Shown: positions 62-64,000, counted from the first letter of the stretch. The stretch: DNA of 64,000 nt from Amoebophrya sp. A120 (GCA_905178155.1 CAJINV010000006.1:2297700-2361699), one strand, 5' to 3'. A program made the numbers and translations. The notes: generated from the letters alone by a model not told the origin.

Positions 62-2672
62 GTAGAATCCCCTCTTTTTCACTTTTCATGAAATCCTCTT
101 CCGACTGGGACACATCTGGATGAAGCTCGTCATTGGACTTGCCGCCTGCAGCTTCTTCTTGTTCACCAGGTTTCTCCTTGTTTATTTCACCTTTATTTTC
201 ATCATCACCGGTTTTCTGTTCTGCAGGGGTCTCTTCCTTTTTCTCTTCTGCTGCACCTTCATCGGAACCCCCGTCCGCTTTCATCTTCACGACCGGCTTT
301 CCATCTGGCCCGAGAACGTTGCCGTTTTCATCTTTCAACACGGTCGGGTCGTCGTCTGATTCGTATGCATTGCAAAAACCGCATGACAAATTTCCTCAGC
401 ATGACAAATTGTCCTAAAGTAGTATGAACCGCATGACAACCTTCCTCAGCATGAAAAATGGAATAATTTATAGTGCGGATTTACCTTATTTGTAATGCAT
501 GTTTTGCAATGCATAATTCATCCACCGCCACGTCTTTCTCGTCTTTCGCATCCCGCAACTTTTTCCCCGGGACCCACAGACAGTGCGTGTCGTCGTCGAA
601 CTCGCACTCCTTTTTCTTCCGAATCGCATTGTCGTACCATCTCGCCAGATCCACTTCTCCCCCGGGGTTGTCCGGCTCGATCATTTTGAACTTCTGCGGA
701 CACGAATGCGAGGAGAAAATACTTGTGTAATTGCAGTAAGTCTGTAAAATGCAATTGCAAAGCATGCAACACAGTTACACTTGTCATGCTAGCCAGCCAT
801 GAAGTCCTACTATCTCGTCATTTGTCGTGTATTCACCGATACTAGCTGTGCGTGACACGCTTTCTTGTCTGTCATGCAGAGCAGATTTGTCGTGCTGTCA
901 TCCCAACAAGACACCTACTGTACTAAACACAGTTTTTTTCCATCTGGGATAACACGGTTGCCAGTCCTCTGCCTTCACCGGGTCGTGCTTGAACACGTTC
1001 GGATCCTCGTCCTCCTTGACCCCATGGTCTCGGCACGGGACCCAGTTAAACGGGTGGCGGATCCAGCTCGGGCAGGTGTACGGATACTGGTCGCCTCCGT
1101 CACGCCACAGCACGTGGATGCACCGGCCTTGGCCGTTTTTCCCGTCCAGGTTGCAGTTATGAACTGCAAAATTATCGTACTAGTAGTAATTGCAATACAA
1201 ATTAGCCCAGCATGACAAATCGAATTTGTCATGCTGTTTTGCCTTTGGATGGACATTTGTAATGCATGGCTGCGATTACTACGAGTACGATACTTTTGCA
1301 CAGGATAGCAGTCCGTCGTCTCCGGGTCCGTGTTTTGCAAATCGTTCACAATTCGTGCTATGCATTGCAAAATAGTATTATCGGACTTTAGTGGTTCTAC
1401 TAGAGATTCTTGCAAGACAAATTTCAATTTGTTGCTGAACCAACACTGTAGTGCTGCAAAACTTCTACAAGCAAACGCAGTTTCTAGACCGATGAGATAC
1501 AGGCTACGCAGCTTTCTTCTTGACAGAACAAGATCGATGAAATACATGAAGGGTTGTTCTCGTTGCAAGGATTGGCACTTGTACCGCAAAGTACGATATC
1601 GTTATCTTTGACACCGCATACGTGCCTTCTGCCAGCAGAACTCCTTGCTGGTGTCGTCGCACACGGTCTCGAAAATCTTTCCGCCCTTTTTGCCCGTATG
1701 CTATGCAAAAACGTCCCCGCCTCGTACTCAAGATGCCAAATCTGCTAGGCAAATTTCTCAGCTTTGGGCGCTGCGCATGACAAGCTTGGCCTCGTTGTGT
1801 AATCCTGTTTAGCTAGTTCCAGCAGAATCACAGATCTAGCATACCATGCTGCTTCGAGCATCACCAATTCCAAAATACGACTAGCAAATGCTTTTCATGG
1901 GGCCCCACATAAGAAACATTTTTACCTTGCAGATTTGCATGACAACTTCTCTGGGGTGCTGGGGAGGTTTTTAGTACACTGGATAGCCCGGGTAAAAAAC
2001 CCACGTCTCCGTACCGAACAGCATGCGGTAGTTGATGTCGTTCTGGCGCTATGAACTGCAAAAGCATCGCACTCGTATAACTATAAATGCATTACAAATT
2101 TCGTCAGCATGAGAAATAAAATTTGTAATGCAGATTTACCTTAAGAAAAAGATTTGTAATGCATGATTGCAATCCGCGTACGATACTTTTGCACAGGATA
2201 GGCGCGGCGCGTGGGCAATTTGCATCGTGTCCGTTAACCGGTTTTTCCGCAGGAGAGAATCTACGTCCTTGGAGGTGGTCCCGAGGTTGCACTGGGTTTC
2301 GGAAAGCGCGGCGGAACTGTTCTCCTCGTCATCGTCGTCCTGACCAGCATCCTCCAGCGGTGGTCGCGGAATCAAGGAACGGTTTTTTTCCAGGATGAGA
2401 AAAGAAGATGTCTTTGCCGATTTGTCAGATCTTCTACTTGATGGGGCCGAAGCAGAACACCAAGGCGCCAACGGCGCAGGGACAGAAGGGAGCGAGGCAC
2501 TTCTTGATGGGGCCGCAAAGCTTGTTGAACAACTGTTGCGGCCTCGTCTCCAAGTAGTTACGCCACCCGTAGTTGTAGTCCACCTCGGGATCTCCACTTG
2601 AAGATCAGCGTGGTCTTCCGGGACGATAGAAGCCCCCGCGGCGTCTAGAAGATGCCGGGTCAGCCAACCCAT
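62..2672 (-). CDS. Cys-containing hypothetical protein, 3' end runs off the window; 6 introner introns plus a partial one
   Basis: Removing the elements at 2050, 1697, 1359, 1158, 705 and 364 (each plus 5 nt) gives one ORF: MGWLTRH...HAPR|QNDINYRMLFGTETWVFYPG|KKGGKIFETVCDD...QKAR|IVNDLQ...TTDC|NLDGKNGQGRC...WQPC|PQKFK...AVDE|SDDDP...EGILL. Confidence 0.75.
364..515. mobile_element. Introner, A-like
   Basis: TIR tatgcattgcaaaa; TSD attcg/attca. Confidence 0.85.
705..951. mobile_element. Introner family G, degenerate
   Basis: AAT..ATA; TSD acacg. Confidence 0.8.
1158..1307. mobile_element. Introner family A
   Basis: TSD gcagt. Confidence 0.9.
1359..1620. mobile_element. Introner, degenerate TIR
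   Basis: TAT..ATA; TSD cgtgc. Confidence 0.8.
1697..1985. mobile_element. Introner family F
   Basis: aaaaacgtcccc TIR; TSD gcccg. Confidence 0.85.
2050..2200. mobile_element. Introner family A
   Basis: TSD ggcgc. Confidence 0.9.
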
Positions 2673-3251
2673 ATTTTTGATCGGGATGTTTGACGATTTA
2701 CGTATTCTAATTTTGTTTCCGTACTAGGGTTAGATTTAGAACAATATCCGTATCGATTGATCTACTGCTGCTTCCTCGCGTCGCGTACTTGTATCGATCT
2801 TCCGGAAGTAGAATGAAACACGACGAAAATTGGCTGGTTTAGGAACTACAAATAAGACGAACACCGGCTTCCGATCGGGCGAAACTAGCGAGTAGTAGAC
2901 TGAGCTATTGGAGCTACTAATTAGTACTAGTACACCACGTGCCGAATTGGAATTACTCTACGTCTTGCTCGTGGAGGTCCCTCATTTCCTCGAATAGTTC
3001 CCTCATCAAGTGACACACGATTTCGAGCTCGACAAAGAACTTCTGTGGTCGAAGTTCTAGAAACAACTTTTACTTTAGTACAACACTTGTTTTCGGTTGT
3101 CATAGTGGTCTCATCGTCATAATCTTGATCATAATCTTCTGATGATCGATCTATCAAAAATCAAAAATTCTGTAAAATTCATCGTCTTTAGCCAGGGGAG
3201 CACAACTGCATCTGCACCTGAGTGTGCTTTCGTTCCATTCATTCTGTTTAT

Positions 3252-6200
3252 TCAAAAATAATTCAGCAACGCCTGCTTTCGCTGCTCAGCCGCGTCTGCA
3301 GAATGATCGTCCAATTTTGTTTGGAGGTGGCCCTTTCTGCTTTCATCCGCTCTACCGGAATTCAACATCGTGGTTTTTGCGGCTCCTGCCGCCGCAGTTG
3401 TTCCAGCGCTAGCTGCTTTCTCACCCTCACTCCCGGAGTTTAACCTGATCTTTTTCTCTACTGGTGCTTGTTCACCTCGGCCTCGCGAGGTTGTTGTACA
3501 ACTTTTCGGATCCTGTAAAAGCAACTCCTGCTGTCGTGCCTTTTTCACGGTCGTCGCGATGGTGCGCAGGGGCAATGCTGTTGAAATAAGTGAAGTCCCT
3601 GGTGGTGGTGCTGGCGCGCCGCCACTGCTACTTATACTCGCAGACGCTGTAGTGGAAGTCGCAGATGAATCCATGATGTGCGCGAAAGAACTGGTTCCCC
3701 TCTCAACATCTGTGGTTCCTCGACGTTCCCCTGACGATGTTGAACTAGCTGCCGTGTCGTGGCTACTAGTACTGGGGCCGCTGTTGATGTTGTACCCATC
3801 ACGACCATTCTGTTCCTCACAACTCCTGCTTTGAAATAGATGCTGTTCCTCCTCCCCCTCCTGCTGTAGTTTCTTCGCCACCGTCGTTTTGATTCTCGGA
3901 ATCATATCGAAAATTTTCGAGCCAAAATCTTCGAAACTTGGAAACGAAGTCGCTGCAATATGATTTTTAAATCCATTCTCTTCTTGATCATTAGGCTGCT
4001 GTACACCAGCGACCGGAGTCGAGGCCACACTGTGTTCAGTGCCACTCCTTTCCTTGCTTGACGAAGACTTTTTCTTTTTCTTCTTTTCCGCCCTGCTTGA
4101 TGTTCGCTTACGTGGTTTTTCTGCCTGGGTTGTAGTTTCTTCGGCCAACAACAACTCATGATCATCGGCTTTAGTATTCATCTCGGAAGTTCTCGATGAT
4201 TTTCTGCTTTTCTTTTCTTTACTGGACTTTCTATGGCGGCGGTGGGGGGCGGGTTCCTCGTCTTTGCTATCATGTTGCCCTGTGCCACCTCGATGGACCA
4301 TGGAGTGACGCGCCAGGTGGTCTGACAGTACCGATTCACTTTCACAGCCTTGGGCTTGGCGTCGACGTGGGTCGTGGATTAGTTGCTGTTTTTGTGCAAC
4401 TGCAAGTTTGTCATGCTCCACGTCCTCTTCGTCAACATCATGCGCACCATGGTGCTTCACCTCAACATTAGAAATCGGCGCGGATGTATTAAACATCATG
4501 CTCTCAGCAGCCGCTTTGTTTGACGCTGCGGAAGGCGAAGGTCGTTGGTACAACTTCTCCGTTGTTGTATTATCGCTGCTTACTTTTCTGGACGACGACG
4601 ATGAAGCCGGTACAACTCCTAATAAGTTTAGCGAAGTTTGTTGATGCTGGTCGTTATGGGAATCAACATTCGCTCGTCCTCCTCCTCCTCCTTCTAGATG
4701 ATGATCTGTAAATTGATCGTGTTCCAAGGATCCCAGCCTGCTGCTTCTACTCCCCGAAATCTTAACCTTCCTTGTGTTGAGAAGCGTTGTAGAAGCAGCC
4801 ACCGGGGGCACAACCCCACCGCTGCTCTTCCTCGTGTTTTGATCCAGTTCTGACGTCGAGCTGAAATTCAGCGGCTGTATAGGGGTTGTGGCACCACCAG
4901 CTTCAGATCCGGACAGAAATTGATCCAACGGACTGGGTGCGGCTCTACTCCCGCTCCCAGAAGCCGGCGCGACTGCCGGTCGTGTTTCTGCACGTTCGTG
5001 TTTGCTCATGTCCCCAGTATTTCTTCGCCTAGTCGACGTGTGGTCGGAGGAAATAAAGCTTTGCGCCGAGCTGCTGCTGACACTGATGCGCGGTCCAGGT
5101 ACTCCACCAACGTCGGAAAGGACATAAGAACCCGGGGAGTGTCTGGCCGCTTTGGGGCGGATGAAATTTGAATCTCGTTCCTCATCGAAGTTCAATTTAT
5201 TCTCTCCAGCAACTTCAGTCTTGTTTTCCAAAGACCACGACGACGAAGCTGGTTTCATTTCCCCTAAGGTCGAGGACATTGTGCAGGAGGGTTTTCGTGA
5301 TGCTGGAGGATCATGTGCAGCAGATGACAAGGAATCACGACCATAAAGCGTATCCTGTGCAAAAGTATCGCACTCGTATTGTAATCATGCATTTACAAAT
5401 CGTTCTCTTAAGGTAAATCAGCATTACAAATTTTATCTCTCACGCTGAGAAAATAATTTGTAATGCATTTATACGAGTACGATACTTTTGCAATCCATAA
5501 AGCGAGGAAGAAGACAAAACTGATGTGGTCAATGGTGTCGCACTTGTTGAAGCAAAACTTAAGCCCGTCGCACTACTTGCGGAAGTAGATGCGGAGGAAG
5601 AAGCAGCTCCGGAACAATTTTTGAAGGTTTGATTCGACATAATTCGGGGCTCCGGGCGAAATACAACAGCACCTGCACCGCTGGGGAGGACATTCCCACT
5701 TCGCCTGAATTTGTTCAGCATTTTCGACGACGTGCCTTTATTTTTGACGCGCCTGCTTCTTTCAAAAGCCGAGATTCCACCAGCCGAAAACTCTTCGGAA
5801 ACGTAATTTGCACCCAGCTCCGACTGCTGTTCATCTTCGTCTTCATCATCAAAAATCTGGTTCTGATTGTGGTTATAACCTCGTCCTCTGTCATGATAGT
5901 TGCTTTCTTCCTCTGATGTAGTTGACGTTGACGCGCCGTCGACGTCGTGTCGAAATCGAGCATGGATCTTTCGTCGCTCTTCCTTCGGAGTCACCTGGAT
6001 CCTCGCCCGGGCGCTGCGTAGAGGGGCGGGCGGGGACTGGAACTCGAACTGGAAGAAGTTCTTCGTAGCATCAACCGACAGCTTATCTTGCCCTCCTCGT
6101 TCTCCATACCGCCCATTATTCAACCCCCCGGAGGTCTTTTTATTCGTACGGCTTGTTCCAGTAGTTTTGCTCGCAGAAGTGATTTTGGTCGTTTTCGACC

Positions 6201-9200
6201 TCGTCTTCTTGCGAGCCAAAAACAAACCAGAGGTGGTGGGCTTCGTGTTGTTAGAGTGTGCTGCAGACCGCGAAGTCGCCCTTGGTAGTTGTCTTTGCGC
6301 GGCGGTGGAAGGACCTGTCTTAGCGGTTGCGGTAGTCGTAGTTCCATTTCCATTAGGTTCCGAAAATAAAGAAGTCCCCGTAGGCCGCACCAAAGCCGCG
6401 CTATTGCAGCTAGTATTCATCCCAGCGCTAGTACCACCGCCAAGCAGCAGCTGCACCACATCGGAGCCGGACATTTTTTGCAGCTCCTCATTGTAATTTG
6501 GACAGAACTTTGACAACAAACCCTTCATATCAATTGTAAAAATGTCTGGGTCTGGAAGAATTCATGTTTGTCATGCTTGTCTGGCATGACTCTTAAATCT
6601 GTCATGCACGTTACCCAAGAGCTCCGTTTTTCTGTGATGCAGAAGCGCAGTTTGTCATGCAGGATAGGCTTCACCTAGGAGCTCAGAAACTTGTCATGCT
6701 GAGCCAGCATTTGTAGCCCCATCATGACACGCCACCCAGCATCACAAGTTTCCAGACCCAGACATTCTTACATTTGATACTTCAGCAATTGGTTCTCCAT
6801 CTGCAGCTGCGAGGCGGACGCGGATGCTGTTGTCGTATTTCTTTGGTTCTCCATCTGCAGTTGCGAGGCGGACGCACTTGCTGTCGCCGTGTTTCTCTGT
6901 TCGTGCATTGCAGGTAGAGGTCCTTGCGGTGGTACAACAGCTACAGCTTCAGGAGGAGCTGCAGGTATTTCCATGAGAATCGCTGCGCTTTGATTTGGTC
7001 GTGTAACTACGGAAGTGTTCGTGCTAGTAGAGTCCATTACTGCGCTGGAGTTGCCCCGCGGGAAATCATGACCCGCTTCTAGTACAACTCCAGGAGCCCC
7101 CGCCGAAGTTTCATTTTTTCCACTAGCAGGAGCAGCTCCTCCAGTGGAGGTCGTGATACCAGAAGATCTCGTAGTACCACCTCCACCTGGTACGACGTCC
7201 ACTGATGTAGTTGGAATTATCGCTGAGACAGTGGAGGAGGATTCTGCTGCAACTGCAGCAGTGGAAACAACTGCAGGAGGCATCTGGTCGGGGTGCTGCG
7301 CAGAAGCTGAAGCGCAAGTGGTTTTTTCTCCTGCAACTTCAGCTCTATTGCGGCCCCGCATGAGAACAAGTTCCGCTTCCCGTTTCTCCAACTCTAACTG
7401 TTTCCTCTCTAGCTCCAATTCCCTTTTCAACCGGATCCGCTCCCGAATTTGCTGTAGCTTTTCCTGAAAACAGCACCCCTGTCTCTTGACCAGCTTCACG
7501 CGTAACACGAACCCGACCAGCCAAAACCAGTGGTAGCAGTTGTTCCTGACCGAAACTTTGTGCTTCGCTTTCTTAGCCCAACGGAAGAGTAAAGGGATTA
7601 ACAGTGTTTTCACGCACGCACGCAACATTCTCGTGCATTTCCTCGCCCGCTCTTGCCGGAATTTTCTCCGGATCCGTTCGCACCACTTGTGAATCCGGAG
7701 CAGGTTTCGCGCCATAGTCTGCAGCTTGTGAAGCAATTTGCGGACCCGGATTTCGCGCAGCAACTTCCTTTCACAATACAAGCAAAATTGCACCGCGAAA
7801 ACGCAGCGGCGGAATTTTTTCCGCAGCACAAAGTGCTTGATCTGTCGCTGCAAGGTTGATTTATCCGCGTTTGCTATCGCGTGCAGGATTTTCTCTTGTA
7901 AAAGCCCGGACTTCAGGAACAGCTTGGAAATACCCAGTTTGAAGAAATCGTTGCTGTTTTTATTACATGAAATCGTCCTAGAACGCTGTTTTTGGCTCAT
8001 CGCACAGGAGCTTGCGTCGCCTTTTTGCATGCTAGCAACTTTTTCTCCTTCATCCACCACTTCCGAAACAAACAACTCGGCAATCAGCTTCGTCGACATC
8101 AAGGCCTCCACGAGTAATCTGGGATCCTGCTCCAGTTCTGGTCCAAAGGAGCAGGTTTTTGATCTGTCACACTGGAGAAGATCAGTACCTCCACTCTCCA
8201 AAGAAGACGACCCTGCTTGTTCTTCTTCGGAGGTTGATATCTTACCAACAAGTTTCTCCATTATACTTGCGTAATTCACCCGGAACGGCCAACCATTTTT
8301 CATCAGAGGAATTAATTCCAGAGTTCCTGACTGCTTCAACTGCAGAAGAGTGACATTGTCGTCAAATTTTCTCGGTTTCGCCTCCAGATTCGGTTTATGA
8401 AATGGAATGACGTCTGGGTCTGGGACAGTGGAACTTGTGATGCGTGTCTTGCATAATTCCTGGAAAATCTGTGTTGCAAGAGGAGCAAATAAAGAGGAGC
8501 TTGCACTTGCTTTGCCATGCAAAAACGCAATTTGTGACGCGTGGTAGGCATCAGCAGGCGTCTTTCAAACTTGTCATGCCTGGCTGCCATTGCAAGCGCT
8601 TCAATCATGCACAATTCAGCATCACAGATTTCCAGACCCCGACATATATGCAATCCATACGGTTTGAAACACTTGATGTAGTGTATCTGGGACTGTTGGA
8701 GCGTCTGTAGCAGACTTTCTAAATCTCGCAGGTATTGCTTGGTAACGGAAGTGGGTTTCGTTGCTTTATTGGAGGAAGAAGCAGTTATGCAGCCGGGATG
8801 ACCCCCCCCTGCTAGGTCGTGTGTCGCGCCACCACATGCCGACAGGCTGAGCGGATGGGGGCGACCACGGGGTTGCTGTGGTTCCGGAGAATCACGATGC
8901 TGCCGCACACTTTCCTCTTGCTCGACGTCCACACCTGCTTCTGTAGTTGTTAATGTTTCTGTCGGTATAATATTTTCAAATAACTGCTCTAGTTCTGGCG
9001 GCATTTCGACCACGTTTTTCTCAAGCCAGTTCAATGTTGAATACTGCACCTCACCGGCGTAGTGGGTGACGATAAAGCTGATGTCGAGATTGTTCTTAAT
9101 CAGGTTTGAGCAGGACTTCAAATCTTTATTGGTCGGCTTGCGGAAGTAAGGAAATAATCCCGATGATCCGGTTGTACTATCACAAATCCGCTTGTTGTTG

Positions 9201-12200
9201 ACAACATTTTCGCCATGCTCCTTGTGCAGAACCTGCAAAACCTCCCTCGTAAACCTTTCGTCGGTGGTCTTCACATTTTTGCGAAGCTGCGAGAGGTGGT
9301 CGTCCAAGGTCCGGAAGCAGGACGCAATCGCGGTGGAGCAGAGATACAACGGAGGTGCAGCTTCAGGAGGATGAAACGGAGCGTCCTGGCCGTTTTTCTG
9401 TTCTTCCACGGACGATAGCGAAGATGTTGCCGAAGATGGCAACATCATTATCCCCTCCTTGACATACAGATCGCGTTCGAAGATGAGGAAATTGTCCTGG
9501 AAAAACGACTATGAAGTGCAAAAGTGTCTGGGTCTGGAAGATTCTGAGACTTGTCATGCACGTTTTGCATGGGCCATGATGTCTGTGATGCATGTCCTAG
9601 CATCACAGAATTTGTGAGGGCTCTGTGATGCCTATTCCGCATGGCAAATGCCCTCTCCGCGTGGCCAAAATTGCATTCCCTTTGCTGCTTATGCAATACA
9701 GATTTTTTTGGAAAAATCCAAATGCAGCACCACAAGTTCGGATTCTTCCAGACCCAGACATTTTTGCATTTGATAACGACTGCAGCCGTTCGTTCGCCAG
9801 GTTGATGCACATCTGCTCTAGCGAATTTTCCGCGAGCTGCTCAAACCCGTAGATGTCCAAAATTCCGATGTATTTAGATTTACTCTTGCTGGTGATGTAG
9901 TTGTTTTTGATTTTGCGGTTGAAATGATCATCATGATCATCTAATACTTCTTCCTCATCTTCGTCCCCTTCCCCACAGCTAAAACTAGAACAATTCGAGG
10001 ACACGCAGCTGCTACTTCGAGACCGCGCCGCAGCAGGCTTGTGGTGTTCGCTTGAAGATGTTTTGTTCTCGTCCGGGATGAGTTTGTCGTTCACGCACTT
10101 TTCCACGATGACATATGTGAAAAGTCTGTTGTACAGCGTTTTTCGCAGGGCGGTGAGACACTGGTAAGCTTGCGTTGCGGACCGGGAAACGGTGATCCTT
10201 TCAGTTTCACCGTGGTGGTCTACAACTTTGGTCGTCGACGTGCTGTTTTCATTCTTTTTAAAGCCCCTGCCAGCGCTGATGCTCATTTCCCGGCTGATCA
10301 GTGCTCTTTCCAGATTTTTCCCGCAGATCCCGAGATACTTCGCCGCCACAGAAATCCCGAGTTTCTTCGTATCAGCGCGGACCTCGATGCTGTTGTCGTT
10401 GGTTTTGTTGATGCTTTTGCTTGCGTTGTTGTTCCGGTGTTGTTGTTCAAACGAGTCGCCTGCCTCATCATCATCATCATCATCTCCGCCACCACTAGAG
10501 ACGAATTCCACACCCCCCAGCAACGCTATTCCCTTCAAAAAATCCCAGACTTTCATGGTCTCAAAGTCTTTTTCCAGGTTCAAAACCTTCATCGCTTCCT
10601 CAAATTCTTTATGAACTGCAAAAGTACTATCGCACTTGTAGTAATTGCAGTCATGCATTACAAGTATTTTTCTTCAGGTAAATCCGCATTACAAATTTCA
10701 TTTCTCATGCTGTGGAAATTTGTAATGCATTTATACGAGTTCGATGCTTTTGCATTTCATATTCTTCAAAAAACTTCTGATCGATCTTGTCCTCCTGTTT
10801 CTGGACTCTTCGCGGACTGTTTCTGGTTTTTTCATAGTCCCGAAACATTTTCCAGTCTTGGAGCGTTTCGGGTTCGACTTGTTCATTATCGTTTTTATCG
10901 ACGATGCTTGATTTCTTCATATCCCGACTTTTATGTTGATCTTGATTTCGCGAAAGCAAGTAGTAAAACACGTGAAAACTGTATGCAGGAAAGAAACTGT
11001 GTAAGTGTAACTTTCTTGGAGGAATAGCATCACAAGTTTGCTCTTCAGAACACAGAAAACCTGTCATGCGGAGCTAGTATCAGTGAAAACACGTACGAAA
11101 AGAACCTCTGATGCATGTGTCTAGCATGACAGGTGATAAGTGTTTTACATACGTCTGCAACACAAAGTTACACTTACACAGCTTTTTTCTTGGATAAACT
11201 GCGCTCCCCCATCTCGCTGTTCCACCCGCACACCCGGCTATCCTGTGCAAAAGCATCGCACTCGTAGTAATCGCAGTCATGCATTACAAATCTCCATCCC
11301 AAGGCAAAACAGCATGAGAAATTCCACTTGTCATGCTGAGCTAATTTGTATTGCAATTACTGCTAGTACGATACTTTTGCAATTCATACCGGCTGGATTC
11401 CAGCAAATAGGTTTGAATTTTCGCGGTTTTGAAATCCCCATAGGGCTTGTTGAAGTGCAGAGTCGAGAATTTTCCAAACCGGCTGGAATTGCGATTCCTT
11501 AAAGTGGTCGCGTTTCCAAACGCTTCCAGTAAAATGTTCCCCGCTTGTAATTTTTTGTTGTGGTTTTGTACGATTTGGTGTCCGACCACAGGCTGCAAGT
11601 TGTTTCCAGCATGATCGTCCGCACAAGGCTGGTGTCCACCCCCTTGCCCTTGGAGGTAGTCGGGAATAGAAGTTTTCGCACTAATATTCCGCTCCCTCGT
11701 GATATCGCAAGAAAAAACTGTTACAAGTACACACTTGTAGTCAATTTAGCAACACAAATTTCTCTGCATGAGAGAGAAAACTTGTAATGCAGAAATCCGA
11801 AGGGAAAACACCTATGAAACGAGGCTGCCATGCGTATCCGGCATGACAGAGCTTGTCTGTCTTGCTCGTCCTGCAACACAATGTGTAACTGTAAAACTTT
11901 TTTCTAAACCATACGTGAAGTATTCCACGAGAACCTTTGCGGTTTCGGTTTTCCCCGCACCGCTATCTCCAGAGATGATGAAGGCTTGGGACGAAGAAGT
12001 AGAAGAAGCACCAGCGGAACATGTAGCACCTCCTGTTGTACTCTGGTCTACTTCCTCGCCAGTTCTCGAACCAGAAGTTCTTATCCTCGCGTAACTACCA
12101 CTACCCTGATTCACTATCCGCCTGAGAGCAAGTTCCGCCAACACGTGGGGATGCGGCTTGGTTTGTAGTTGTTTAGAAGTGGTCCTGGTCGATGTTCTTG

Positions 12201-27127: not shown

Positions 27128-27588
27128 GCCACGGGCTGCAGCTGCCCTCGTAGTTCACAAGGGCAACACTCTCTGTGGTCGCCTCCGGGGCTCTGAGTGC
27201 GTGCTTCTGTTCCTCTTCCTCCCGCCACGGGGGTTCAGGTTTTCTAAAATTCTTATACGCTTATTTTTCCATTTCCTATTGGCACACTACAACTGCTGGT
27301 GATTGTGACGACCACACAAGTGCTTGTGCTCCTCCCTCTCTCTGTAGACCCTGCGCTTCTATAAATGTGTCGACTTCGCTTGATGAGGACATCAAGTTGA
27401 TGAGAATGTGCCTTTGTTTTTCGCAAAACCAAAAGCCAAAGCCCCATTAGTTCTTACATTTGACTTTTCCTCGTCTCCGCTCGGAGCTGAAGACTGTGTC
27501 ATCTCTGGTGCCTCTCTCTCATCTGGTGGTAAGTCGTGGTCGTTTTGTCTTCTGCTCATTGATTCTAGTTCTACTTTCTAGTAGAGAA

Positions 27589-52627: not shown

Positions 52628-55600
52628 TCAACCTTCGCCCAAATCAGGGGTCGGCCGGCTGTTGTCCGTGCTCCTTGGCGCGGCCATCAGAGGCGGTTCT
52701 TCTGACATTGGCGCCACTTGCGAGGCCCTGGTAGCTCCCGCAGAAGTGGTCCCGCCAACCTGCGACGCCCTCGTCGTCCCAGCACCTCCACCAGCAACAC
52801 TGTGGCGCGAGGCCGCGGTCTGCGAAGCCCGTTGTTCCTCTCTTTTCGATATGGAATGTAAAAGTGTCTGGGTCTGGAAGCTTGGAACTTGTAATGCTAG
52901 CTTTCCATACCTAGAAAATCTGTATTGCACTATAACCAACAAAAGTCGCAGCCTCTTTTGTCATGTTGGGAAGCTAAGGGCTGGGCGTCCCTGTCGTTCT
53001 GTAAACCTTAAAACGGTAGCCACTTACTCGACAAACTCTAAATAGAATAAGTTTGGACAAAGTGATCACTACCGAGAGACAACAACAAAATAAAGGCTCC
53101 TGGGACGGCAGCCTCTTTTGTCATGCAAAACCGCAGTTTGTCATTCGGATTGCCTACGAGAAAGCGTTTTGGGAAGTTGTCATGCCGGATTGCATTCGGA
53201 AGTGTTTTGTTTCATCATGCACATTTTAGCACCACAAGTTTCCAGACCCAGACATTTTTGCATTTCCTATTCGAAGGGCTTTTCGACATCTCGGAACTGC
53301 GTTTGTTCATCTCCGAGGTCCGTTTTTTTGACGCCTGGCGACTGGATCGACCAGACGAGGCATTGTTTGCCCCCGCCTGATATGCATTGCAAATATGTCT
53401 GGGTCTGGAAACTTGTAATGCTAAAAGTGAATGATAGACGCACTGCAATACGCAGCTATGCATGACAAATTTTTTGGCTGCCATGTCTTACTTATTCCGC
53501 ATGGCAAACTGCGTTTTTGCATGACAGGTAAGAGGGCCTTTTCGTGCCTATGCAACACAGATTCTCGAGTCATGCCAGAAAAGCATGACAAACTTGCAGT
53601 CTTCCAGACCCAGACATTTTTGCATTTGATACTTCAGAGTGGGAAGAGTGGCTGTGGTGTGCGGATTTATTCATTTGCGAGGTGCGTTTGCTGGAGCGCG
53701 ATTTCCGGCTACTTCTTCCTCCCGAGGATTTCATAGCGTTCTTAATGGCGTCGCCGAAGGCTATCATTTGTAAAAACGTCGACGTCCCCACCCCACAGTT
53801 GTAATGCAATTCTGCATACTGAAGACGTTTCTCATGCGGAGCCCAATGAGAAGCATTTTCTAGTTGTGTTTCGGAGTTTGTCATGCTCCAATCAGCATGA
53901 TGTGCTAGGTTTGTGAAGATGCTGGTGAACTACCTAAACGAGATGACACTACGAGGCCAGACTTGTCATGCGCAACAACCAAGCCTCGTGGATTATTTGT
54001 CTAGCAGATTACCCATCTTGACTATGGGGTGGAGACGTTTTTACACAGGATAAAGGCTGCGCCGTCCTCTAGGATGTTCACCGAACTCTCCAGGCGCTGT
54101 CGCTCCATCTTCTCTTGCTTTTCCGTCAGCGTGGCCAGCTGCTTTTTCAACACGGAGACCCGCTCGTTCCGGCTCTTCCTGTATCCTGTGCAAAAGTATC
54201 CGATACTCGTAGCAATCGCAATACTGCATGACAAATCTTCAATCTTAAAGTAAATCCGCATTACAAATTTTATTCCTGATTCTGAGGATGAAATTCAAAT
54301 TTGTAATGCAGTTTAATACGAGTACACGATAGTTTTGCAATTCATATCCTGCCCTCGTGCGTGCTCCCGAAGGCCAGGGAATTCATCATGGCCGAGGTCA
54401 TCGACTTTTGCTGCTCGGACCGCAAGTCTTGCAGCTCCTTTTTCAGACCGTCAATCTCCTTCGCCAGGGCCTCCTCCCGTGGATCGATGCCCCGACTGAC
54501 CAGCAGGGCAGATTTGCTGCGGCCCGCGAGGCTCTTATCCGGCTTCCCGTCATCACCCATAACCAAATGCTCGCTCTTCCTCCGAACGACTTGCCGATCC
54601 ACCTCACAGCATATCCTGTGCAAAAGTATCGCACTCGTAGTTGTAGTCGCATTTTTGCACGACAAACCTCTTTTTCAAGGTAAATCAGCATGAGAAATTC
54701 CATTCGTCATGCTGAGCAAATTTGTAATGCGATTACTACTAGTACGATACTTTTGCAGTTCATACAGCACCAGGCGCAACAGCATTTTATCGGGATCACG
54801 ACGAAAAGGACGACCAAGATATGCATTGCAAACATGTCTGGGTCTGGAAACTTGTAATGCTGAATGATCATGATTGACTGTGCCTTTGAGTGCATTGCAG
54901 CATGACAAATGTTTCAAACGCTCTCTCATGCGCAGAACGCATTACAAACTGCGCTTTTGCAGGACGAAAGTGTGGCGCTTTGTGTGCTGCCTATGCAATA
55001 CAGATTTTTTAGGAATGCGAAACATGCAATACAGGTTCAACCTTCCAGACCCAGACATATTTGCATTTGATACAAGAGGAAGATGAGCAAAAACCCGAGC
55101 AGGGTTCCGAGGATCATCATGCAGTACCAGTTGTATCCTGAGCAAAAGCGCCCCCGCCTCATAGCTAACATGAGAAATCTGCTAAACAAATCAGCCAGCT
55201 TTGGTTGTTGCGCATGACAAGTTTCGCCTCGCAGTGTGATCCTGTTTAGCTTGTTCAGCAGCATCACAGACCTAGCCTATTGTGCTGATTTGAGCATTAC
55301 AAATTCCACACCACGGCTAGAAAATGCCTGTCATCGGGCTCCGCATGAGAAACCTTCTGAGCCTGGGGACGTTTTCACACAGGATAAGTTGCAGCTTTTT
55401 CCCTTCTCCTCCATACTTTGGTCGTAACTCCGGATTCCCGCGGGAACGGTTCTTCCATCCGGGTATTGATAGTGGTACTCCTTCGAATCGTATCGCAACA
55501 AAAAGTGTTACAGTATACACATTGTGTTGCAGGAGCCGCAAGACAGTAGACAACCTTTGCCATGCAAGAAATGGTTGCGAACTTCATTTCGTACGTGTTT

Positions 55601-57977
55601 TATTCCCTTAGGATCTCTGCATTGCAAGTTTTCTGTGCCACACAGAGAAAATTTGTGTTGCTGAAGGTCCAAAAAATGTTCAACTGTAACACTTTTTTCT
55701 TGTGATAAAACGTCCGGGGGCACAATCAAACACGGCTGGTTCGCCACATCGAGCATGTATCATTTGTAAAAACGTCCCCACTCCAGAGTCAAGTTCTTGG
55801 GGATTTTGCAACATAAACGTTGAAGTTTTGGGAACCACGCATAACAAGTTCTTGCAGGCTGTAGTGTAGTGCAGATTAGCAAGCGAAGCCGCATAGCACA
55901 TTCATCTCCTCATCCTGTTTACAGCATTACAAGTTCCGAAACACTATGGGAAATGCCTCTCATGGGGATGCGCAAGACTAACGCTCTTGTGTGCTTCCAG
56001 ATCTGCATGACAAGAACTCTGGGGTGGGGGTGTTTTTACACAGGATAGCATGGTGGTATTGTCAACGCCGTACGCGGCGATGTCAAAATTCGGGTTTTTC
56101 ACCACCCGTACGCGCGCGTAGGTCGTCGTTTCCGTCTCCCCCGTTTCGGCGTTTTTCACGGTTTCGTTTCTGAACAGAAAGGCCTCGTCGATGTGGTCGT
56201 GCGCGTAGGAAAACCCGGTCTGCTCCTTTTCCTTTTCGAAAAGAACCCCGAGGACCACCCGGTCGAGGTAAATGTCCGATTCGAGACAGTCGTAGACAAA
56301 CTCGCAGCAGGTCGGGTAGGGTTCTTGTAGGTCTTGGTTGTCGTTGTGGTACTGCTCTACCTCGCACTGGGCTTTCCGATACAGAGGTGACGGGAGCAAA
56401 ATCTTCTCCGACAACACCATGCGCGTGACGAGGGGCACTTCTGGCGTCGAAGAAGTAGATTCTTCTGCTAAATGTTCTTGTATGTCTCTACTCCCGCAGA
56501 CCGCCGGCAGGCACACATGTTGCGGCTCCCCTTGTGGCTCGATACTCTCTCCGTCTTGCCCCGCCTGCGAGGAAGCAGGGGCAGCGAGAAGCCCTTGCCC
56601 CGTCTGCGCGGCCTGCGAGGAAGCAGGGGCAGCGAGAAGAGCCTGCTTCGCCTTTGGCTTTATCTTTGATCCACCTGGTGGTGGATCTTCCCGTCCAGCG
56701 GCAAGAAAAGAAACGCCGGCTTGTTGTTCCTCTGTCGTGACGTTGTTGGTGCCATTTTGCTCTGGGTGGAGCGGGTTCGCGCTGGCCCCCCCGGCTCCGT
56801 CTCCTGTTACTGTTTCATTGTTCGTACCGCCTGCAGTTCCCGAAGGTTCTGCCACAACTCCTGTCGTTGCGTTTGTACTACCGTCTGCTTGCTGTGTTTC
56901 ATTACTACCGCCTGCATCTACTGTGTGACCACCCGCTGCACTGGCTCCGGTCCCGTCTGAAGACGTTGCCTCTACTTCTCCAGCTGCGCTCTCAGTTGCA
57001 TTTGTGGTCCCCTCCCCGCGACCACTCTCATCGCCTTCCTCAATTGCCCCGGCCTCGGCCGGGGTTCCCTGCAGGTGCGGTCCCGTGGCCGCCGGCGCAC
57101 ACCGACCATTATCGTGGACGAAGTGCGTGTAGAGCTCGACCACCTTCCGCCTGATCACCTCCTGGTCGTTTTCCTCGTCCTTCGTGCCCATAATTTGCAG
57201 TTCGACCACCGGGATTCCGTTGTGGGTCGGCCCCTTCCAACCCGTCGGCAGGAACTTTTCTTCTTGCTCATGTTCTTGAGCCGCATGATTTTGAATACTA
57301 TGCTTCTGGGTTAGGATTTTCTTGTTCTGGACGAGCTTTGTAGTCCTTGACGTGGTTGCGAAAGAGGAAGTTGGGACTTTTTCGACCGTTTTTGCGCTTC
57401 TTGTTCTTTCCTCACTCGTCCTGGAAGTTGTTGATGATGCTCTCTTCTTTTTTACCAGCACTCGCTCTTGTTTATTTCTTGCCGGCGAGAAGGTCCTCCG
57501 CGTGGAAGAAGATTTTCCATTTCCCAGCTGAACCGCGGAGGTGACCGAACAAGTACAACATATCGAAAGAAAAACCTGTTATTTCATCACTGTGAACTTG
57601 TAAATCGCATACGATAAGTACGTGTTTGTGGACTTGCTTCTCGTACACATGCAGGACAATGCATACTTTTTGGCGTGTTTATTTTCCTTGGGTGGCTGCT
57701 CACATGGCAAACAACTTCTCATTTGTGATGTGGAGCAAACTTGTGATGCAATAAAACTAGCTTGCACAATGAAAATCATCACAGTGAAACAGTTTTTTCG
57801 TGGGATACTCCAGGTGTTCAAAATTATATCAACGCCGATGATGATCCACCATGACGACGACGACGACCTTCCTGTGTAGCATAATACTCCCGGAATTAGG
57901 TTGGACATTCGTCCCCCGATCAGTTTGCAAGCACTTCTCGTCCGCCGGCCACGACTGGAGGTCGCCCGCTGGTTCAT
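52628..57977 (-). CDS. Type-I membrane protein (~919 aa) with cytoplasmic coiled coil; 10 introners
   Basis: Spliced length 2760 nt. TM rebuilt across an element: MMILGTLLGFLLIFLL|VVLFVVIPIKCCCAWCC; coiled coil EEALAKEIDGLKKELQDL. Confidence 0.75.
52850..53269. mobile_element. Introner family B carrying a nested insertion
   Basis: TAT..CTA; TSD ttcga. Confidence 0.85.
53381..53631. mobile_element. Introner family B, now GT-AG bounded
   Basis: TSD cctga/cttca. Confidence 0.85.
53762..54052. mobile_element. Introner family F
   Basis: TSD aaggc. Confidence 0.9.
54182..54346. mobile_element. Introner family A
   Basis: TSD tcctg. Confidence 0.9.
54612..54764. mobile_element. Introner family A
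   Basis: TSD cagca. Confidence 0.9.
54820..55072. mobile_element. Introner family B
   Basis: TSD caaga. Confidence 0.9.
55134..55386. mobile_element. Introner family F
   Basis: TSD agttg. Confidence 0.9.
55491..55707. mobile_element. Introner, E/G-like
   Basis: TIR tatc.caa.aaaaagtgttacag; TSD aatcg/aaacg. Confidence 0.85.
55758..56047. mobile_element. Introner family F
   Basis: TSD gcatg. Confidence 0.9.
57561..57807. mobile_element. Introner family E
   Basis: Decayed TSD caaca/ctcca; frame kept. Confidence 0.8.
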
Positions 57978-58731: not shown

Positions 58732-61201
58732 TCACAAAACCACGAAGCAGGAGGCGCTGAGCGCGGTCGCGACATCGACATTGCTCCTTCACACGAACAC
58801 CGTGTACTGGTTTGTCACGCATCACAAGTTCTTCAGTCATGCCAGACAAGCATGACAAACCTCGCACAAGCATGACAAACCTTCCACACATATTTGCTTT
58901 TGATAAAAGTACTCGAAAAACAAATTCTTCCCCTCGGTGGGACAGTGGTCGAGTTGGATCCGCACCAGCCGCTGTAGCTCCTTCGCGTCCAGGTTCGCCG
59001 CACATTGGAGAAAGAACGCTTCCTTTCCCCTCGTCTTGTACTCTCGGAGAACGTAGCAGCACTCCAAAAAGCGCTTCCGGAGTATGAACTGCAAATATGT
59101 CTGGGTCTGGAAGATTCTAAGCTTGTGATGCTGTCTCTGGATTCAAAAGAAATCTGTATTGCGTGACCAGCAACAGGACTCCAGTTTGTGCTACGCGGAG
59201 AGGGCATTTCCTATCCGGAATAGGCATTCGGAAGCCCAGCAAAAGTCTGTGATGCTAGTGCATGCATTACAGACTCCATGGGTCATGCAGAATATGCATG
59301 ACAAACCTGGCAATCTTCCAGACCCAGACATTTTTGCAATTCATACGTAGGTAGACGTGCTCATTCCGGTTGATGTGCTGCGGGGGTGGATCCTGAGCAA
59401 AAACGTCCCCACGACCCCAGAGAAGTTTGGCATTTGTAATGCTGTAAACAGGATGAGGGGTTTGGTTTGTAATGCGGTCGCCCTTGCAGCTATTAACGTG
59501 CACTACCATAGTACAGAGACCACGAACTTGTCATGCGTGACTTCCAACACTTGTCGATTTGTGTAGCGCAGTCGCCATCTTGACTCTGGGGCGAGGACGT
59601 TTTTAGTCAGGATAAGGTGGTTGGAAAACCGGCGGGGCGCTGGAAGAAGAGGATTTGTGCTGTGGAAGATGAGATGCGCTCATCACCGCGGGGGGCGACA
59701 TCTTGTTTATTTTGCAATCGACGTCACACTTGTTGTGAATTTGCCGGTGGTCGTGTTTATCTTTATTCCCTACATACTTAACTATCCATACCTCGCTTGT
59801 GCTTTTCGGGAAGATGAGGACCTTCCACCTGTTGTCTTTGTGCCGAAGATTATTAGTCATACAGAATGACTTCTTCCTCCGTTAGCGGCTTGGTGAAGAT
59901 TTTTTCACAAATTTCATCTACCACCTTCTGATCATTCTTGCTCCTTCACACGAACACCGTGTACTGGTTTGTCATATGTATCAGCGTCGCTTAAAAATAC
60001 TGAAGATTCAATACGCCTTCGTCGTATGAAGAGTCGTGTCGTACTTACTTCTTCGTGGTAAAGAAATCCACTGCAGCAGAGGTTCCAGCTCGTCTTCCAC
60101 TTCCTTGATGTGCAGTCGAAGATTGAAAATAAATCAGTAGCGACCACAAGAGCTTGTTGTTCAACATGAAGATTTCAATTTCTTCACTGTATTTTATTCA
60201 CCGTCGCTAGTGTTTTGTCCAGATTTTTCAGCGCTTTCGGCACTAAATCGTTCGAGATCATCTTCTTCGTTGGAATCCATTTTCCGTACTCTTCCAACTT
60301 TTTCTCCTCCGCGTCAACATCGTGCAAGTCCTTTCGTATTATGAATTTTTGCAAAAGTGTAATCGTTTACTAGAACAACTTGCAACTGCTTTTTACATCA
60401 CAAATTTGCGCAGCATAATGCGAAAGGCAATTGGTAATGCGGATTCAGCTTGACAAAGAAATTTATGCATAAACGCACTAGTACGAGTTAGTACGATACT
60501 TTTGCAGAGGATAGGTATTTTTGTCAGCGAATTTACCGCTTCGTCCACCTCGCGAATGGAGCTGGAGTAGGAGCTATGCACTGCAAATAGAAGATGTCTG
60601 GATTTCCAATGCAAGACTTCAATGACAAGAAGATCTGTAATGCATCAATGCGATAATTGTTGAGCAGTCCTTTTTTTGTCGCGCTGGATTGAAGTCATTT
60701 GTCATGCGTTTTACGAATGAATTACGAATAAAGAGCCTTTCCAAACTTCTGATGCTGTTCTACTGCCTGATTGTGATTATACAAGGGGCTAATAGTATTG
60801 ACCCAAGAATGCGAGTACAACTTACTATCACTATCAGCAAGACAAATTTCCAGATCCAGACACATTTGCACTTGATAGGAGAAAGAAGTTCTGGTCTGCG
60901 GCCTCCTGGTGGTGGTCGTTGCGGAAGATGCGGTCGCGGTTGTTTCATTTTCTCGCAGCACTGTTGACAAGAAGGATGTGCCTTGTAGTTTTGCGGCTGA
61001 ACAAGATGATGCCTGGTTCTCTTGCGGTGGTACTACAAGAACTGACCCCCGCGGCCCATCCGAGAAACAATCACGCGTACAGTGCTGCAGGCTCTTGCTG
61101 CTCGAGATCATGCTGCCCCCGGCCGGGACAAGAAGCGCAAGATCATGATCGCAGATAAATGACTCCGCGTGGAGGTTCTGCAGGAGGTCACGCAACAACA
61201 T
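58732..61201 (-). CDS. Hypothetical protein; 4 introners plus probable GT-AG introns (60104-60201, 59944-60044, 58787-58912)
   Basis: In-frame joins RTSFS|YSSSIREVDE..KI|RKDLHDVD and FQPP|PQHINRNEHVYL|RKRFLECC; structure at 59700-59870 unresolved. Confidence 0.5.
58818..58905. mobile_element. Half (one-ended) family B introner
   Basis: Only one TIR remains (..cacatatttgcttttgata). Confidence 0.65.
59083..59345. mobile_element. Introner family B
   Basis: TSD cggag/cgtag. Confidence 0.9.
59389..59614. mobile_element. Introner family F
   Basis: GAT..ATA; TSD gggtg/aggtg. Confidence 0.85.
60340..60513. mobile_element. Introner family A
   Basis: TSD cgtat/ggtat. Confidence 0.85.
60575..60877. 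mobile_element. Introner family B
   Basis: TSD ggagc/ggaga; related to 32704. Confidence 0.85.
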
Positions 61202-62110: not shown

Positions 62111-64000
62111 TTATTTGGCCGTATGATCCTTGTCCCCTCCCGCTTTATCAGTCCGATGCTCGTGCTGTCCAGAAACTGCCGTGCGACCAACGCGGCCGTC
62201 AGAGTTGTCCATTGAACCTCCCACAGCTGCCACGTCCTCGTCGTCCAAGCGTGGTCTTTCTTTCGGTGCAAAGTCATCACTTCCAGACGTCTTGTTTAGC
62301 TGTACTGGCACAGTAGAGGGTACTAAGGGACGAGTCCTGGGGGACGATGTAGAAGAAGTGCCAGCTTTTGTAGTTTTTTCTGCGCCATCGTCGATTGCAG
62401 CTTCTTGCTGCTGCACTTGTTCATCTCCTGTTGTAGCTCCTGCAGTTTTTCTTTTATCGCAAGAAAAAACTGTTTCACTGTGAACTTGTGATGCATAGAA
62501 CGGAACGCAAATGTGTTTCTCTTGCTATACATGCAAGGCATTGGATTTTCACGCGTGTTTTCCCTTGGGAAGCGCGCATGACAAATTTTCAGTTTCATGT
62601 GTAGCAAACTTGTGATGCAGATCCTGCAAAGTCATCACAGTGAAACAGTTTTTTCGTAGGATATGTTTCCTCTTTATTACTACAATCGCTTTGAGGCTCT
62701 TTCGCCCGCACTCTCTGAATGTGGTCCATAACCATATGGCGTTCGCAACTGTTATACTCTCAACTGTTACATGAATTTGTGATGCCAGAAAGGCAAAAGT
62801 GAAAGTGGAAAGGTTGCGCCTTTTGCATTACAGGTTTGGAGGAGCACAGTGTAATGCTATAATCTAGCGCGTCGAGAACTTGTCATGCGGAGAAGGCTTG
62901 AAAATGAAATTGTGAAAAGTCATGATAGTGTTTTTGCATGACAAATCATGTAACAGTTGAGAATGTAATGTTTGAGAGTCCCATAAACCAGTTTGCGCAC
63001 GTCGACTTCTTGCGTCAAACTTGCCACCGGAAGTTCAACATCCCGAAATTTCCGCACGTAGTTATGCATTGCAAAAGGAAAAGCATCGTACGTAGTATAA
63101 ATCGCATGACGAATTTTATCAGGAAGAAAATTGGAATTTGTAATGCAGATTTGGATAGGAAACCAGATTTGTCATGCATTCCTGCAATTCATACGAGTAC
63201 GATACTTTTGCACAGGATAGTAGTCGTTCAGCCACGATTTCCGCGAAACTAGAAACGCACCCAGCTCCTGCTTGTACGGAATCATCATGCCGAGATCCCA
63301 GATTTTGATCCCGCGCTCGAGTAAAAACTCGCCGAGCAGAAGCAGCTGCACCTTCCCAGCGCCCGAATTCTCCTCCATATTGTCACGGTTGAAAAAGCCG
63401 GTCAAGCTCGTGTAAATCAGGCCGTTAGTGTATTGTGAGGAAAATAAATCGTCCCCCCTCGCCCTAGTGAAGATTGATGAAAAAGCGTATGCTTCTAAAA
63501 AATGTTTGCGATGCTGATTTGTGACAACATGAAATCCAGCGGGTCCGCCACATCACGCAGGCGATTTCTTTGTAATGCTGTTACGCCTACCTTGCAGGCC
63601 TCTGCTATTCGCCTACCTTGCGCCTACACCATCCAAAGCACCCCTAAAAAGGCTCGGGCTTTGCCTGCAGTGCCTCACTGCAATACAGAGCTAATTTGTG
63701 TAGACAAATCCAGCAACAGAAATTTTCGTTCGAATTGGAGACGAGGGGGGCTTTTTTATTTCGATATTGTGTACCCGAGCTCGCCTGCAATCAGCTGCCC
63801 TTTGTCGTTAAACAGCTCGACCGACCAAAAATTCACGTTCTTGTACACTTTCGGTGCAGGAGGAGGCGGCGGAAGTGAGGGCCCCTTCGACGAAGCGCCA
63901 GAGGACGACGAAATTTTCGCATTTTCCTTCCCAGCTGCCGATCGCATGTTGGCGCGACTAGTCGTGCCTGTGGTGTGCACGACCTCGGTGCGCGGCTTCT
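62111..64000 (-). CDS. Leucyl/phenylalanyl-tRNA--protein transferase-like (Aat/ATEL1 family) protein, 5'-partial; 4 introners
   Basis: WSVELFNDKGQLIAGELGYT|NGLIYTSLTGFF..GAGKVQLLLLGEFLLERGIKIWDLGMMIPYKQELGA fits the eukaryotic L/F-transferase-like pattern; frame continues to the stop at 62111. Confidence 0.82.
62455..62663. mobile_element. Introner family E
   Basis: TSD tcttt/tgttt. Confidence 0.85.
62735..62985. mobile_element. Introner family C
   Basis: TSD aacca. Confidence 0.9.
63063..63219. mobile_element. Introner family A
   Basis: TSD gtagt. Confidence 0.9.
63431..63766. mobile_element. Introner, singleton TIR type
   Basis: TIR ..cccccctcg; TSD tagtg/ttgtg. Confidence 0.85.

Follow-up and report, generated by a model that had tools for sequence, protein, structure and literature searches.

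The closest published relatives of the elements described here come from the same organism. In Amoebophrya sp. A120, Farhat et al. 2021 (PMC7789003) reported RNA-seq-supported non-GT-AG introns of about 240 nt, termed introners, whose inverted repeats read TAT, seven variable bases and at least three A, and whose direct repeats are 5 bp in the legend of Fig. S19 within a range of 3–5 nt. A hairpin model was already proposed there, no transposase was found in A120, repeat lengths were variable, and the authors speak against transposase mobilisation as the general rule. The paper left open how tens of thousands of such introns are removed in Amoebophrya, and marked their borders as unknown or variable. 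Gozashti et al. 2025 (PMC12130899) describe A120 TIR DNA introners of 150–320 bp, similar in size to ours. Family 38 is listed there as ‘Ginger; 5-bp TSD, TA/TA Termini’ with Copia/Gypsy-like ORFs inside the inverted repeats, whereas in 56 of the 58 A120 rows the automated duplication lengths of the other families are 2–11 bp or none and the superfamily is mostly ‘Unknown’.

More distant systems share some of these features. The MITE-derived introns of Fritillaria borealis are likewise genome-scale, transposon-derived and non-GT-AG, and are removed by a U2-type spliceosome, but U1 is kept and AG-AC and AG-AT are the preferred ends (PMC13326754, PMC11282704); in our elements both terminal positions are host-derived and free. 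Euglenid nonconventional introns, thought to be non-spliceosomal, have purine/pyrimidine borders; as here, their ends are joined by a stem that lies inward of the splice sites, they carry repeats resembling duplications, and GT-AG introns occur alongside them (PMC6221363, PMC11282704). Their CAG/CTG at +4..+6 and -8..-6 (PMC11282704) is absent from our elements.

Here we analyse the window, a stretch of 64,000 nucleotides of A120 DNA (CAJINV010000006.1:2297700-2361699), for which an earlier note had proposed that TIR transposons bounded by TAT...ATA and a 5-bp duplication are excised precisely as introns. The element class is already known: the note's citation of Farhat et al. 2021 is right and most of its rule is stated there. 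The TAT-N7-A(≥3) start, the direct repeat overlapping the border and the repeated families that carry no transposase gene all recur in the window. Compared with that account, our elements have a uniform 5-bp duplication and, as far as sequence comparison goes, a probable single register of removal, invariant bases that depend on direction and a shared internal motif. The last three appear to be new; our literature search found no report of them, and figures S19–S25 of Farhat et al. may show some. The note's interpretation as a whole is partly supported.

Results

A relaxed scan for inverted-repeat elements gave 75 hits in the window against 0–3 per shuffle (three shuffles). After one hit was dropped and ten decayed copies were added by eye, the set comprises 84 complete elements of 149–420 bp. 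The dropped candidate, 16156-16682, was taken as a chance match with a low score inside an open frame. The genes and their elements are:

Up to 61: partial seventh element of gene G1, cut by the window edge
62..2672, minus strand: gene G1, running off the window; 6 elements (364-515, 705-951, 1158-1307, 1359-1620, 1697-1985, 2050-2200)
3252..12417, minus strand: myosin gene, 7467 nt spliced; 8 elements (5351-5499, 6528-6779, 8396-8659, 9510-9775, 10610-10761, 10982-11196, 11239-11388, 11703-11913)
15325..22359, minus strand: gene G3, 5592 nt spliced; 7 elements (16855-17126, 17613-17865, 17937-18089, 18187-18339, 19378-19528, 19608-19757, 19873-20148)
23310..24667, minus strand: four elements not covered by the first gene models (23310-23552, 23612-23871, 23875-24149, 24494-24667)
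25025..27127, minus strand: gene G4; 5 elements (25391-25625, 25725-25874, 26010-26200, 26409-26638, 26698-26976)
29251..38838, minus strand: gene G6+G5, 5100 nt spliced; 16 elements, 13 of them covered by public models P0018 and P0019 (30337-30611, 30939-31157, 31250-31508, 32212-32439, 32704-32963, 33028-33261, 33551-33780, 33838-34103, 34367-34672, 35072-35280, 35364-35691, 35757-36021, 36654-36915, 36966-37247, 37308-37569, 38060-38330)
31669..31920, minus strand: ordinary GT-AG intron in G6+G5, also in the public model
39771..49170, minus strand: G8-domain / CEMIP beta-helix gene G7 (Pfam), 4503 nt spliced; 20 elements (40024-40173, 40862-41016, 41061-41322, 41339-41734, 41814-41964, 42033-42295, 42365-42657, 42703-42854, 42895-43155, 43202-43462, 43558-43707, 44298-44524, 44581-44846, 44927-45198, 45353-45604, 45694-45956, 46168-46392, 46459-46722, 46922-47149, 47320-47625)
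52628..57977, minus strand: gene G9, 2760 nt spliced; 10 elements (52850-53269, 53381-53631, 53762-54052, 54182-54346, 54612-54764, 54820-55072, 55134-55386, 55491-55707, 55758-56047, 57561-57807)
58837..59860, minus strand: frame G10; 2 elements (59083-59345, 59389-59614)
60184..61201, minus strand: frame G11; 2 elements (60340-60513, 60575-60877)
62111..63998, minus strand: frame G12, which starts past the window edge; 4 elements (62455-62663, 62735-62985, 63063-63219, 63431-63766)

The four elements at 23310..24667 likely belong to G4, in an extension at its 3' end that two GT-AG introns would connect. Many donor and acceptor choices fit such an extension, and element 23612 is located within the sense 3' end of element 23875. 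G10 terminates in a truncated element remnant at approximately 58820-58905.

Perfect TAT...ATA ends are found in 75 of the 84 elements, an exact 5-bp duplication in 59 (mean identity of copies 0.92) and both together in 53, which bears out the anatomy proposed earlier. Duplication lengths of 3, 4, 6 or 7 bp are exact in only 0–2 elements and were rejected. In a scan that presupposed no motif and no duplication length, 177 strong stems were inspected, of which many are cross-pairings between copies; a 5-bp duplication flanks 40, and all 40 start with TAT. For finer comparison, 80 window elements were oriented by sense and combined with 55 from six further contigs (L001-L006). In these 135 elements TAT is conserved in 130–135 and A at positions 11–14 in 106–121, and sequence clustering yields 10 multi-member clusters and 18 singletons. 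The families, previously described as having unrelated sub-terminal repeats, are not wholly unrelated: they share the TAT-N7-AAAA end and an internal motif, TGTnATGC, which is carried by 123 of 135 elements and occurs 230 times in 19.8 kb of element DNA compared with 8 times in the 44.2 kb outside. Elements insert in both orientations without bias in two large families (23:19 and 12:17). No Rfam family was found in the window.

The ends and duplication invite comparison with integrase-related enzymes. These move the inverted-repeat elements Ginger1, Ginger2-TDD and IS3EU/GingerRoot. Ginger duplications are 4 bp, with the 5 bp seen here only in TDD-4/5, and Ginger ends read TGTNR instead of TAT (PMC2836005). 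IS3EU/GingerRoot elements have TA..TA termini like ours but usually a 6-bp duplication (PMC10045372), a length exact in 0/84 elements here. TAT ends with 5 bp match neither group. The same ends, duplication length and internal motif throughout make the single transposase type suggested earlier a fair inference, although duplications of the Mutator type, 8–9 bp long, occur in at least one A120 family (PMC12130899). Scans up to 1.5 kb found no autonomous element in the window or in L001-L006, no element above 460 bp was confirmed, and a search of viral contigs gave 0 matches; the elements themselves are too short for a transposase gene. Family 38 is a lead to the transposase.

Deleting each element plus 5 nt leaves 11/11 frames open, while deleted lengths of another class modulo 3 leave 0–1 of 11, and retention of any single element is never tolerated (0/80). 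The spliced lengths 7467, 5592, 4503 and 2760 nt given earlier are reproduced, as are the rebuilt myosin motifs; 5100 nt is obtained only if the ordinary intron at 31920-31669 is also removed. These lengths hold, but divisibility by 3 cannot separate removal of 5 extra nt from 2 (9/11 frames open) or 8 (10/11). Homologues reject both alternatives at 16 of 20 G7 junctions. Three of the other junctions fall where nothing is aligned, and at 46168 removal of 8 nt gives the better score against distant homologues, even though the public protein has 5 nt there. Proteins that carry the name Amoebophrya sp. A120 match the window exons at 100% identity. In four public A120 models, which were built from transcript alignments, 42 of 43 junctions agree with the element-plus-5-nt product. 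The G7 product equals public P0001 over 1500/1500 aa, and the proteins are intact, with distant homologues aligning without gaps. The sole exception is 53381..53631 (minus strand), where the public model removes 53665-53432 and retains 51 nt of the element, an element that would be GT-AG at the register proposed below.

GT/GC-AG borders are possible at any of six registers in only 3 of 80 elements, and an in-frame GT..AG pair within 12 nt exists for 30 and is missing for 50. Use of cryptic GT-AG sites was rejected as a general route on these counts. Together with the public junctions, this indirectly supports the earlier proposal that the elements are removed precisely, with 5 nt, and mostly without GT-AG.

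Imperfect duplications at seven junctions allow the register of the cut to be read through public gene models and stop codons; the value of four was fixed before the comparison with public proteins. The public Val at 46459..46722 (minus strand, mismatch at position 4) and the public residue at 57561 in G9 require that at least four upstream bases are kept, and the residue at 55491 in G9 requires at least three. A stop is avoided only if at least two upstream-copy bases are kept at 17613..17865 (minus strand, copies differing at sense positions 1–2) and at least one at 40024. The public Gly at 32704..32963 and Ser at 31250..31508 (both minus strand, mismatch at position 5) allow at most four, two results that may be biased given that public models set borders by motif preference at perfect duplications (in A120 family 1, 892 of 1322 start N-T and 864 of 1322 end A-N; PMC12130899). 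Four is the only register that satisfies 7/7 constraints, an agreement with a chance of 0.039 under random registers for the five residues and 0.021 with the stops included. These junctions point to one register, in which four duplicated bases would remain upstream and the intron would read N-UAU...AUA-NNNN. The outcome at 46459..46722 is contrary to the choice expected of a GT- or AC-seeking aligner.

Mismatches between the duplication copies number 8, 3, 5, 6 and 7 by sense position, with no pile-up at one position, and 17 of 29 fall at codon position 3 (p=0.007), which makes selection on the protein visible. No support was obtained for selection preserving intact duplications.

At the inferred register, +2U, +3A and -7A are invariant in 135/135 elements. 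The 5' end has 0, 0 and 5 changes at positions 1–3 and the 3' end 7, 1 and 0 at the mirror positions, an asymmetry (p=0.0008) that rests on 13 changes in a set whose detection restricted the allowed end mismatches. The pattern was first noticed in the window, and 4/4 variants in L001-L006 conform to it. End decay follows the direction of transcription. A change of the -7 A to G, which wobble would tolerate, is never seen; this A is followed by U and has no CTRAY context, and the confirmed GT-AG intron 31669..31920 lacks an A at -7. The 135 elements show no splice-site consensus past +4 (C in 82 and G in 52 at +5; a single U at +6). An excess of G at intron +1 is mirrored at the other end (50 vs 45 of 135), which indicates target preference, and selection by splicing was rejected as its cause.

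Discussion

The core of a spliceosomal donor is +2U and +3A. The U2-type feature, +2U and +3A/G, is present in 135/135 elements, conditional on the inferred register, and the GT/GC...AG termini of U2-type introns are largely lacking. Most spliceosomal proteins and U2, U4, U5 and U6 occur in A120 (PMC7789003), and fixed distances from branch to intron end occur in other eukaryotes (PMC2483917). The reading that we favour, at somewhat better than even, is that one integrase-type DDE transposase spreads the A120 introners and that an altered spliceosome cuts them at a fixed register with no need for GT or AG.

A non-spliceosomal nuclease and ligase guided by the hairpin, as proposed for euglenid introns (PMC6221363, PMC11282704), with the staggered cut 1 nt before and 4 nt after the stem as the enzyme footprint, is less likely but a serious competitor. 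It would explain a fixed register equally well as well as the lack of any terminal dinucleotide rule, and U1 was undetected in A120 (PMC7789003). The predicted folds also suit it: for 70 of 84 elements folding is much stronger than in shuffles, end-joining hairpins reach z -6.6 and -13.6, and both ends are paired in 72 of 84, as in the stable stem of the euglenid type. However, hairpins are expected of any inverted-repeat transposon, the 12 elements without predicted end pairing occur in the same genes, and decay at the three terminal pairs tracks base identity and transcription direction instead of pairing, with the invariant bases coinciding exactly with +2U and +3A. Guidance by the terminal hairpin alone, as suggested earlier, fits less well than base-specific reading because the ends decay asymmetrically with transcription direction, and the hairpin may still help to join the ends. 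The same hairpin could instead place a relaxed spliceosome that cuts anywhere equivalent within the duplication, the direct repeat equalising the product. Splice sites that vary relative to the hairpin (PMC7789003, Fig. 3 legend), the 59 duplications that are still perfect and the mismatches at synonymous positions, expected if both copies sometimes reach mRNA, are in keeping with this. We consider it improbable, given that all seven constraints give one value, that copies with two or three mismatches persist in intact genes, two of which would acquire stops at other registers, and that the published variability can stem from alignment ambiguity.

Two further explanations place the event outside RNA processing. 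Excision from DNA in a developmental stage, like that of ciliate internal eliminated sequences, with transcripts made from cleaned copies, would account for TA-bounded transposon-like ends, TA being invariant at one of them, and for the precise loss of one duplication copy. It is very unlikely: the asymmetry follows the direction of transcription, to which DNA excision would be blind, both the window and six further contigs still contain the elements, and dinoflagellates are not known to have a germline–soma split. Hairpins with short direct repeats are also the classic setting for template switching, and reverse-transcriptase jumps across them could mimic removal in genes that are transposon-riddled pseudogenes; the odd junction at 53381 may be one such event. 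This is the least credible alternative, with intact proteins that align gaplessly to distant homologues, no tolerated in-frame retention and visible selection at codon position 3.

Under the favoured combination of transposase and altered spliceosome, a dimeric integrase-related transposase of the Ginger/IS3EU kind would bind both the TAT-N7-AAAA ends and the TGTnATGC sites, which point inward, and would make a 5-nt staggered cut. On removal the upstream exon would retain four duplicated bases and the downstream exon one; every intron would then read N-U-A-U...A-U-A-N-N-N-N, and the spliceosome would read U+2 and A+3 and count from a branch A, perhaps assisted by a hairpin that brings the ends together. 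We propose that the mirror symmetry of the ends gives either orientation the same signals, so that any insertion into a coding exon becomes a clean intron. In a bolder form, which we hold only tentatively and with some doubt, the A120 spliceosome would ignore the first and last intron bases, take +2U/+3A from the terminal TA and make the 3' cut seven bases past the invariant A, such that one family of integrase-mobilised elements sharing the TGTnATGC site would have given rise to perfect introns tens of thousands of times, wherever in coding sequence it landed and whichever way round.

A fixed register provides a sharp test at each imperfect duplication and puts forward one nucleotide as the candidate branch. 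Should the spliceosome be responsible, bases that pair in exon ligation in other eukaryotes would be dispensable in Amoebophrya, and this would explain how a transposon could spread through coding sequence while the protein pays nothing for it.

Results

The elements, short introners with inverted repeats and TAT...ATA ends between 5-bp direct repeats, are far more frequent than expected by chance. A strict scan for TAT...ATA flanked by exact 5-bp repeats returned 66 pairs in the window, of which 54 had at least 11 of the 20 terminal bases complementary, compared with 0–3 such pairs in each of 20 local shuffles. When the scan was blind to motif and duplication length, 177 strong stems were examined: 40 carried a 5-bp duplication, every one of them with a TAT start, and 109 had no duplication, many being pairings between different copies. 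A relaxed scan gave 75 hits, from which one weak hit within an open frame was removed and to which 10 decayed copies were added by eye. The resulting 84 complete elements (149–420 bp) fill 31% of the window. Ends are perfect in 75 and the 5-bp duplication is exact in 59 (other lengths, 0–2 of 84). The pattern in the earlier note is real and was accurately described. A pattern scan of metagenome contigs yielded 58 further elements obeying the same rule at six loci. The identical 385-bp elements at L002 4592–4976 and L006 3585–3969 have the same flanking codons and represent a single site present on two contigs rather than a new transposition.

All window genes are on the minus strand. Eleven frames hold 80 elements, none of which can be retained, and removal of each element plus one 5-bp copy (element+5) opens all 11; the remaining four elements probably sit in a 3' extension of the gene G4. 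Further features of the gene landscape are as follows.

25025–27127, minus strand: G4
29251–38838, minus strand: one open frame, split by the public annotation into partial 638-aa and 842-aa models at a Gly-Ala repeat (~34730–35000)
39771–49170, minus strand: G7, which encodes a G8/CEMIP beta-helix protein; a paralogue in A120 is P0002 (66% over the exon used as query)
58837–59860, minus strand: the frame G10, which may be truncated through rearrangement or mis-assembly, since one copy of an exact 37-bp duplicate (58781–58817 and 59938–59974) cuts off an element remnant at its end
13001–14800: GC-rich, element-free intergenic block (0.57–0.79 per 200 bp versus ~0.49 overall), in which two frames had no Pfam match
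27574–27631: short near-perfect intergenic palindrome

Exon queries hit identical (100%) proteins that carry the name Amoebophrya sp. A120, and spliced G7 equals the public protein P0001 over 1500 of 1500 residues. Of 43 element junctions covered by four public models, 42 correspond to element+5, which, together with the open frames, supports the proposal that excision is precise. At the sole exception (53381, elements being named by start coordinate), the public model cuts elsewhere, leaves 51 nt of the element in place and changes the reading frame. The public pipeline chooses the longest ORF, which may account for this departure, given that the product is 921 aa in the public model versus 919 aa under element+5. 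For G7, a profile of 16 homologues favours +5 over both alternatives, +2 and +8, in 16 of the 20 junctions. The myosin gene is genuine, with successive exons matching Pfam Myosin_head in the right order. One exon terminates with YLLESS, where a solved myosin has YLLEKS, another with NERLQ (compared with NEKLQ), and at element 8396 profile positions 585 and 588 lie three residues apart across the junction. The motifs are thus rebuilt by element+5, as the earlier note had claimed, and its view that removal mostly dispenses with GT-AG is also supported, given that GT/GC-AG is available at one or more of the six equivalent positions in only three of 80 elements. Ordinary GT-AG introns occur alongside the elements (for example, 31920–31669).

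The two ends decay differently. Among 135 sense-oriented elements (80 from the window and 55 from the loci, two of the latter being one site in two contigs; three further loci elements with unclear strand were omitted), the first T and A at the 5' end are invariant and the third base is altered five times, whereas at the 3' end it is the third-last base, A, that never varies, with eight changes in the final two (P = 0.0008). Insertion is orientation-neutral in two large families (23:19 and 12:17) and a transposase treats both ends alike, hence the asymmetry must reflect selection on the transcript.

From this decay, before any junction was looked up, we predicted that four duplicated bases are left on the upstream exon, giving an intron N-UAU...AUA-NNNN (register four). 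Where the 5-bp copies differ, the product reveals the source copy of each base. Public residues indicate that at least four upstream bases are kept at 46459 and 57561, at least three at 55491, and at most four at 32704 and 31250, while stop codons demand at least one at 40024 and at least two at 17613. The single value common to these seven constraints is four (probability under random registers, 0.021). The lower bound is likely read-driven, because the residues at 46459 and 55491 run contrary to what an aligner looking for GT or AC would have selected. The upper bound carries less weight, since motif preference clearly sets the public borders within perfect repeats. In elements 53381–53631 and 17613–17865, the downstream copy has mutated so that CAG or TAG falls precisely on the inferred 3' boundary; the introns become GT-AG and AT-AG, which looks like drift towards canonical ends.

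With register four, these invariant positions correspond to +2U, +3A and −7A of the intron; the first two form the core of a spliceosomal donor, and −7A is a candidate branch nucleotide. In strain A25, whose repeats begin with TTA, the model would again give +2U/+3A. No consensus wider than these bases was found in the 135 elements and the hairpins are strong, which keeps removal by a structure-guided enzyme a serious rival to splicing. Fixed short branch-to-end distances are described in Yarrowia, Trichomonas and Giardia (PMC2483917), but the introns described there have a full branch motif and AG.

Several elements show unusual arrangements. Element 23612–23871 sits in the sense 3' end of 23875–24149 and its duplication includes the terminal TA of that outer element, so the inner one must leave first to rebuild the outer end, as in a stwintron. 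The outer downstream copy mismatches at positions 2–4 and matches at 5, which register four permits. A candidate GT-AG intron at 24187–24402, reading G-TAC...GATA-CAAG, has element geometry with A at −7 and may derive from an old element whose ends have become canonical. At 24950–24990, a very short decayed element-like piece lies within a likely GT-AG intron after G4.

The elements also share an internal motif, TGTnATGC, with 230 copies within elements versus eight outside. It is carried by 123 of the 135 elements, points inward and peaks 30–50 nt from each end. Target composition is symmetric. Shared ends, duplication length and motif support one enzyme type mobilizing these families, as the earlier note proposed; other families of A120, among them the Mutator-like family 65, obey other rules (PMC12130899). 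TA ends and 5 bp point to the integrase-related transposase group but match neither Ginger, which has TGT ends (PMC2836005), nor IS3EU/GingerRoot, which usually has a 6-bp duplication (PMC10045372). No element-mobilizing transposase was found in the window or the six loci (L001–L006).

Discussion

As first described, the element system is already known from two reports. Farhat et al. 2021 (PMC7789003) report more than 60% non-canonical, RNA-seq-supported introns in A120, with U1 undetected, inverted repeats starting TAT-N7-AAA, 3–5-nt direct repeats (5-bp repeats appear in a supplementary legend), an intron border described as variable or unknown, and no transposase found. In Gozashti et al. 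2025 (PMC12130899), one A120 family combines inverted repeats with Copia/Gypsy-like ORFs and is tabulated as '5-bp TSD, TA/TA Termini'. Our literature searches on the subject found no report of the fixed register, the direction-dependent invariant bases or the shared motif. These rest on small numbers and public gene models, not reads, and they bring the splicing question within reach of a direct test.
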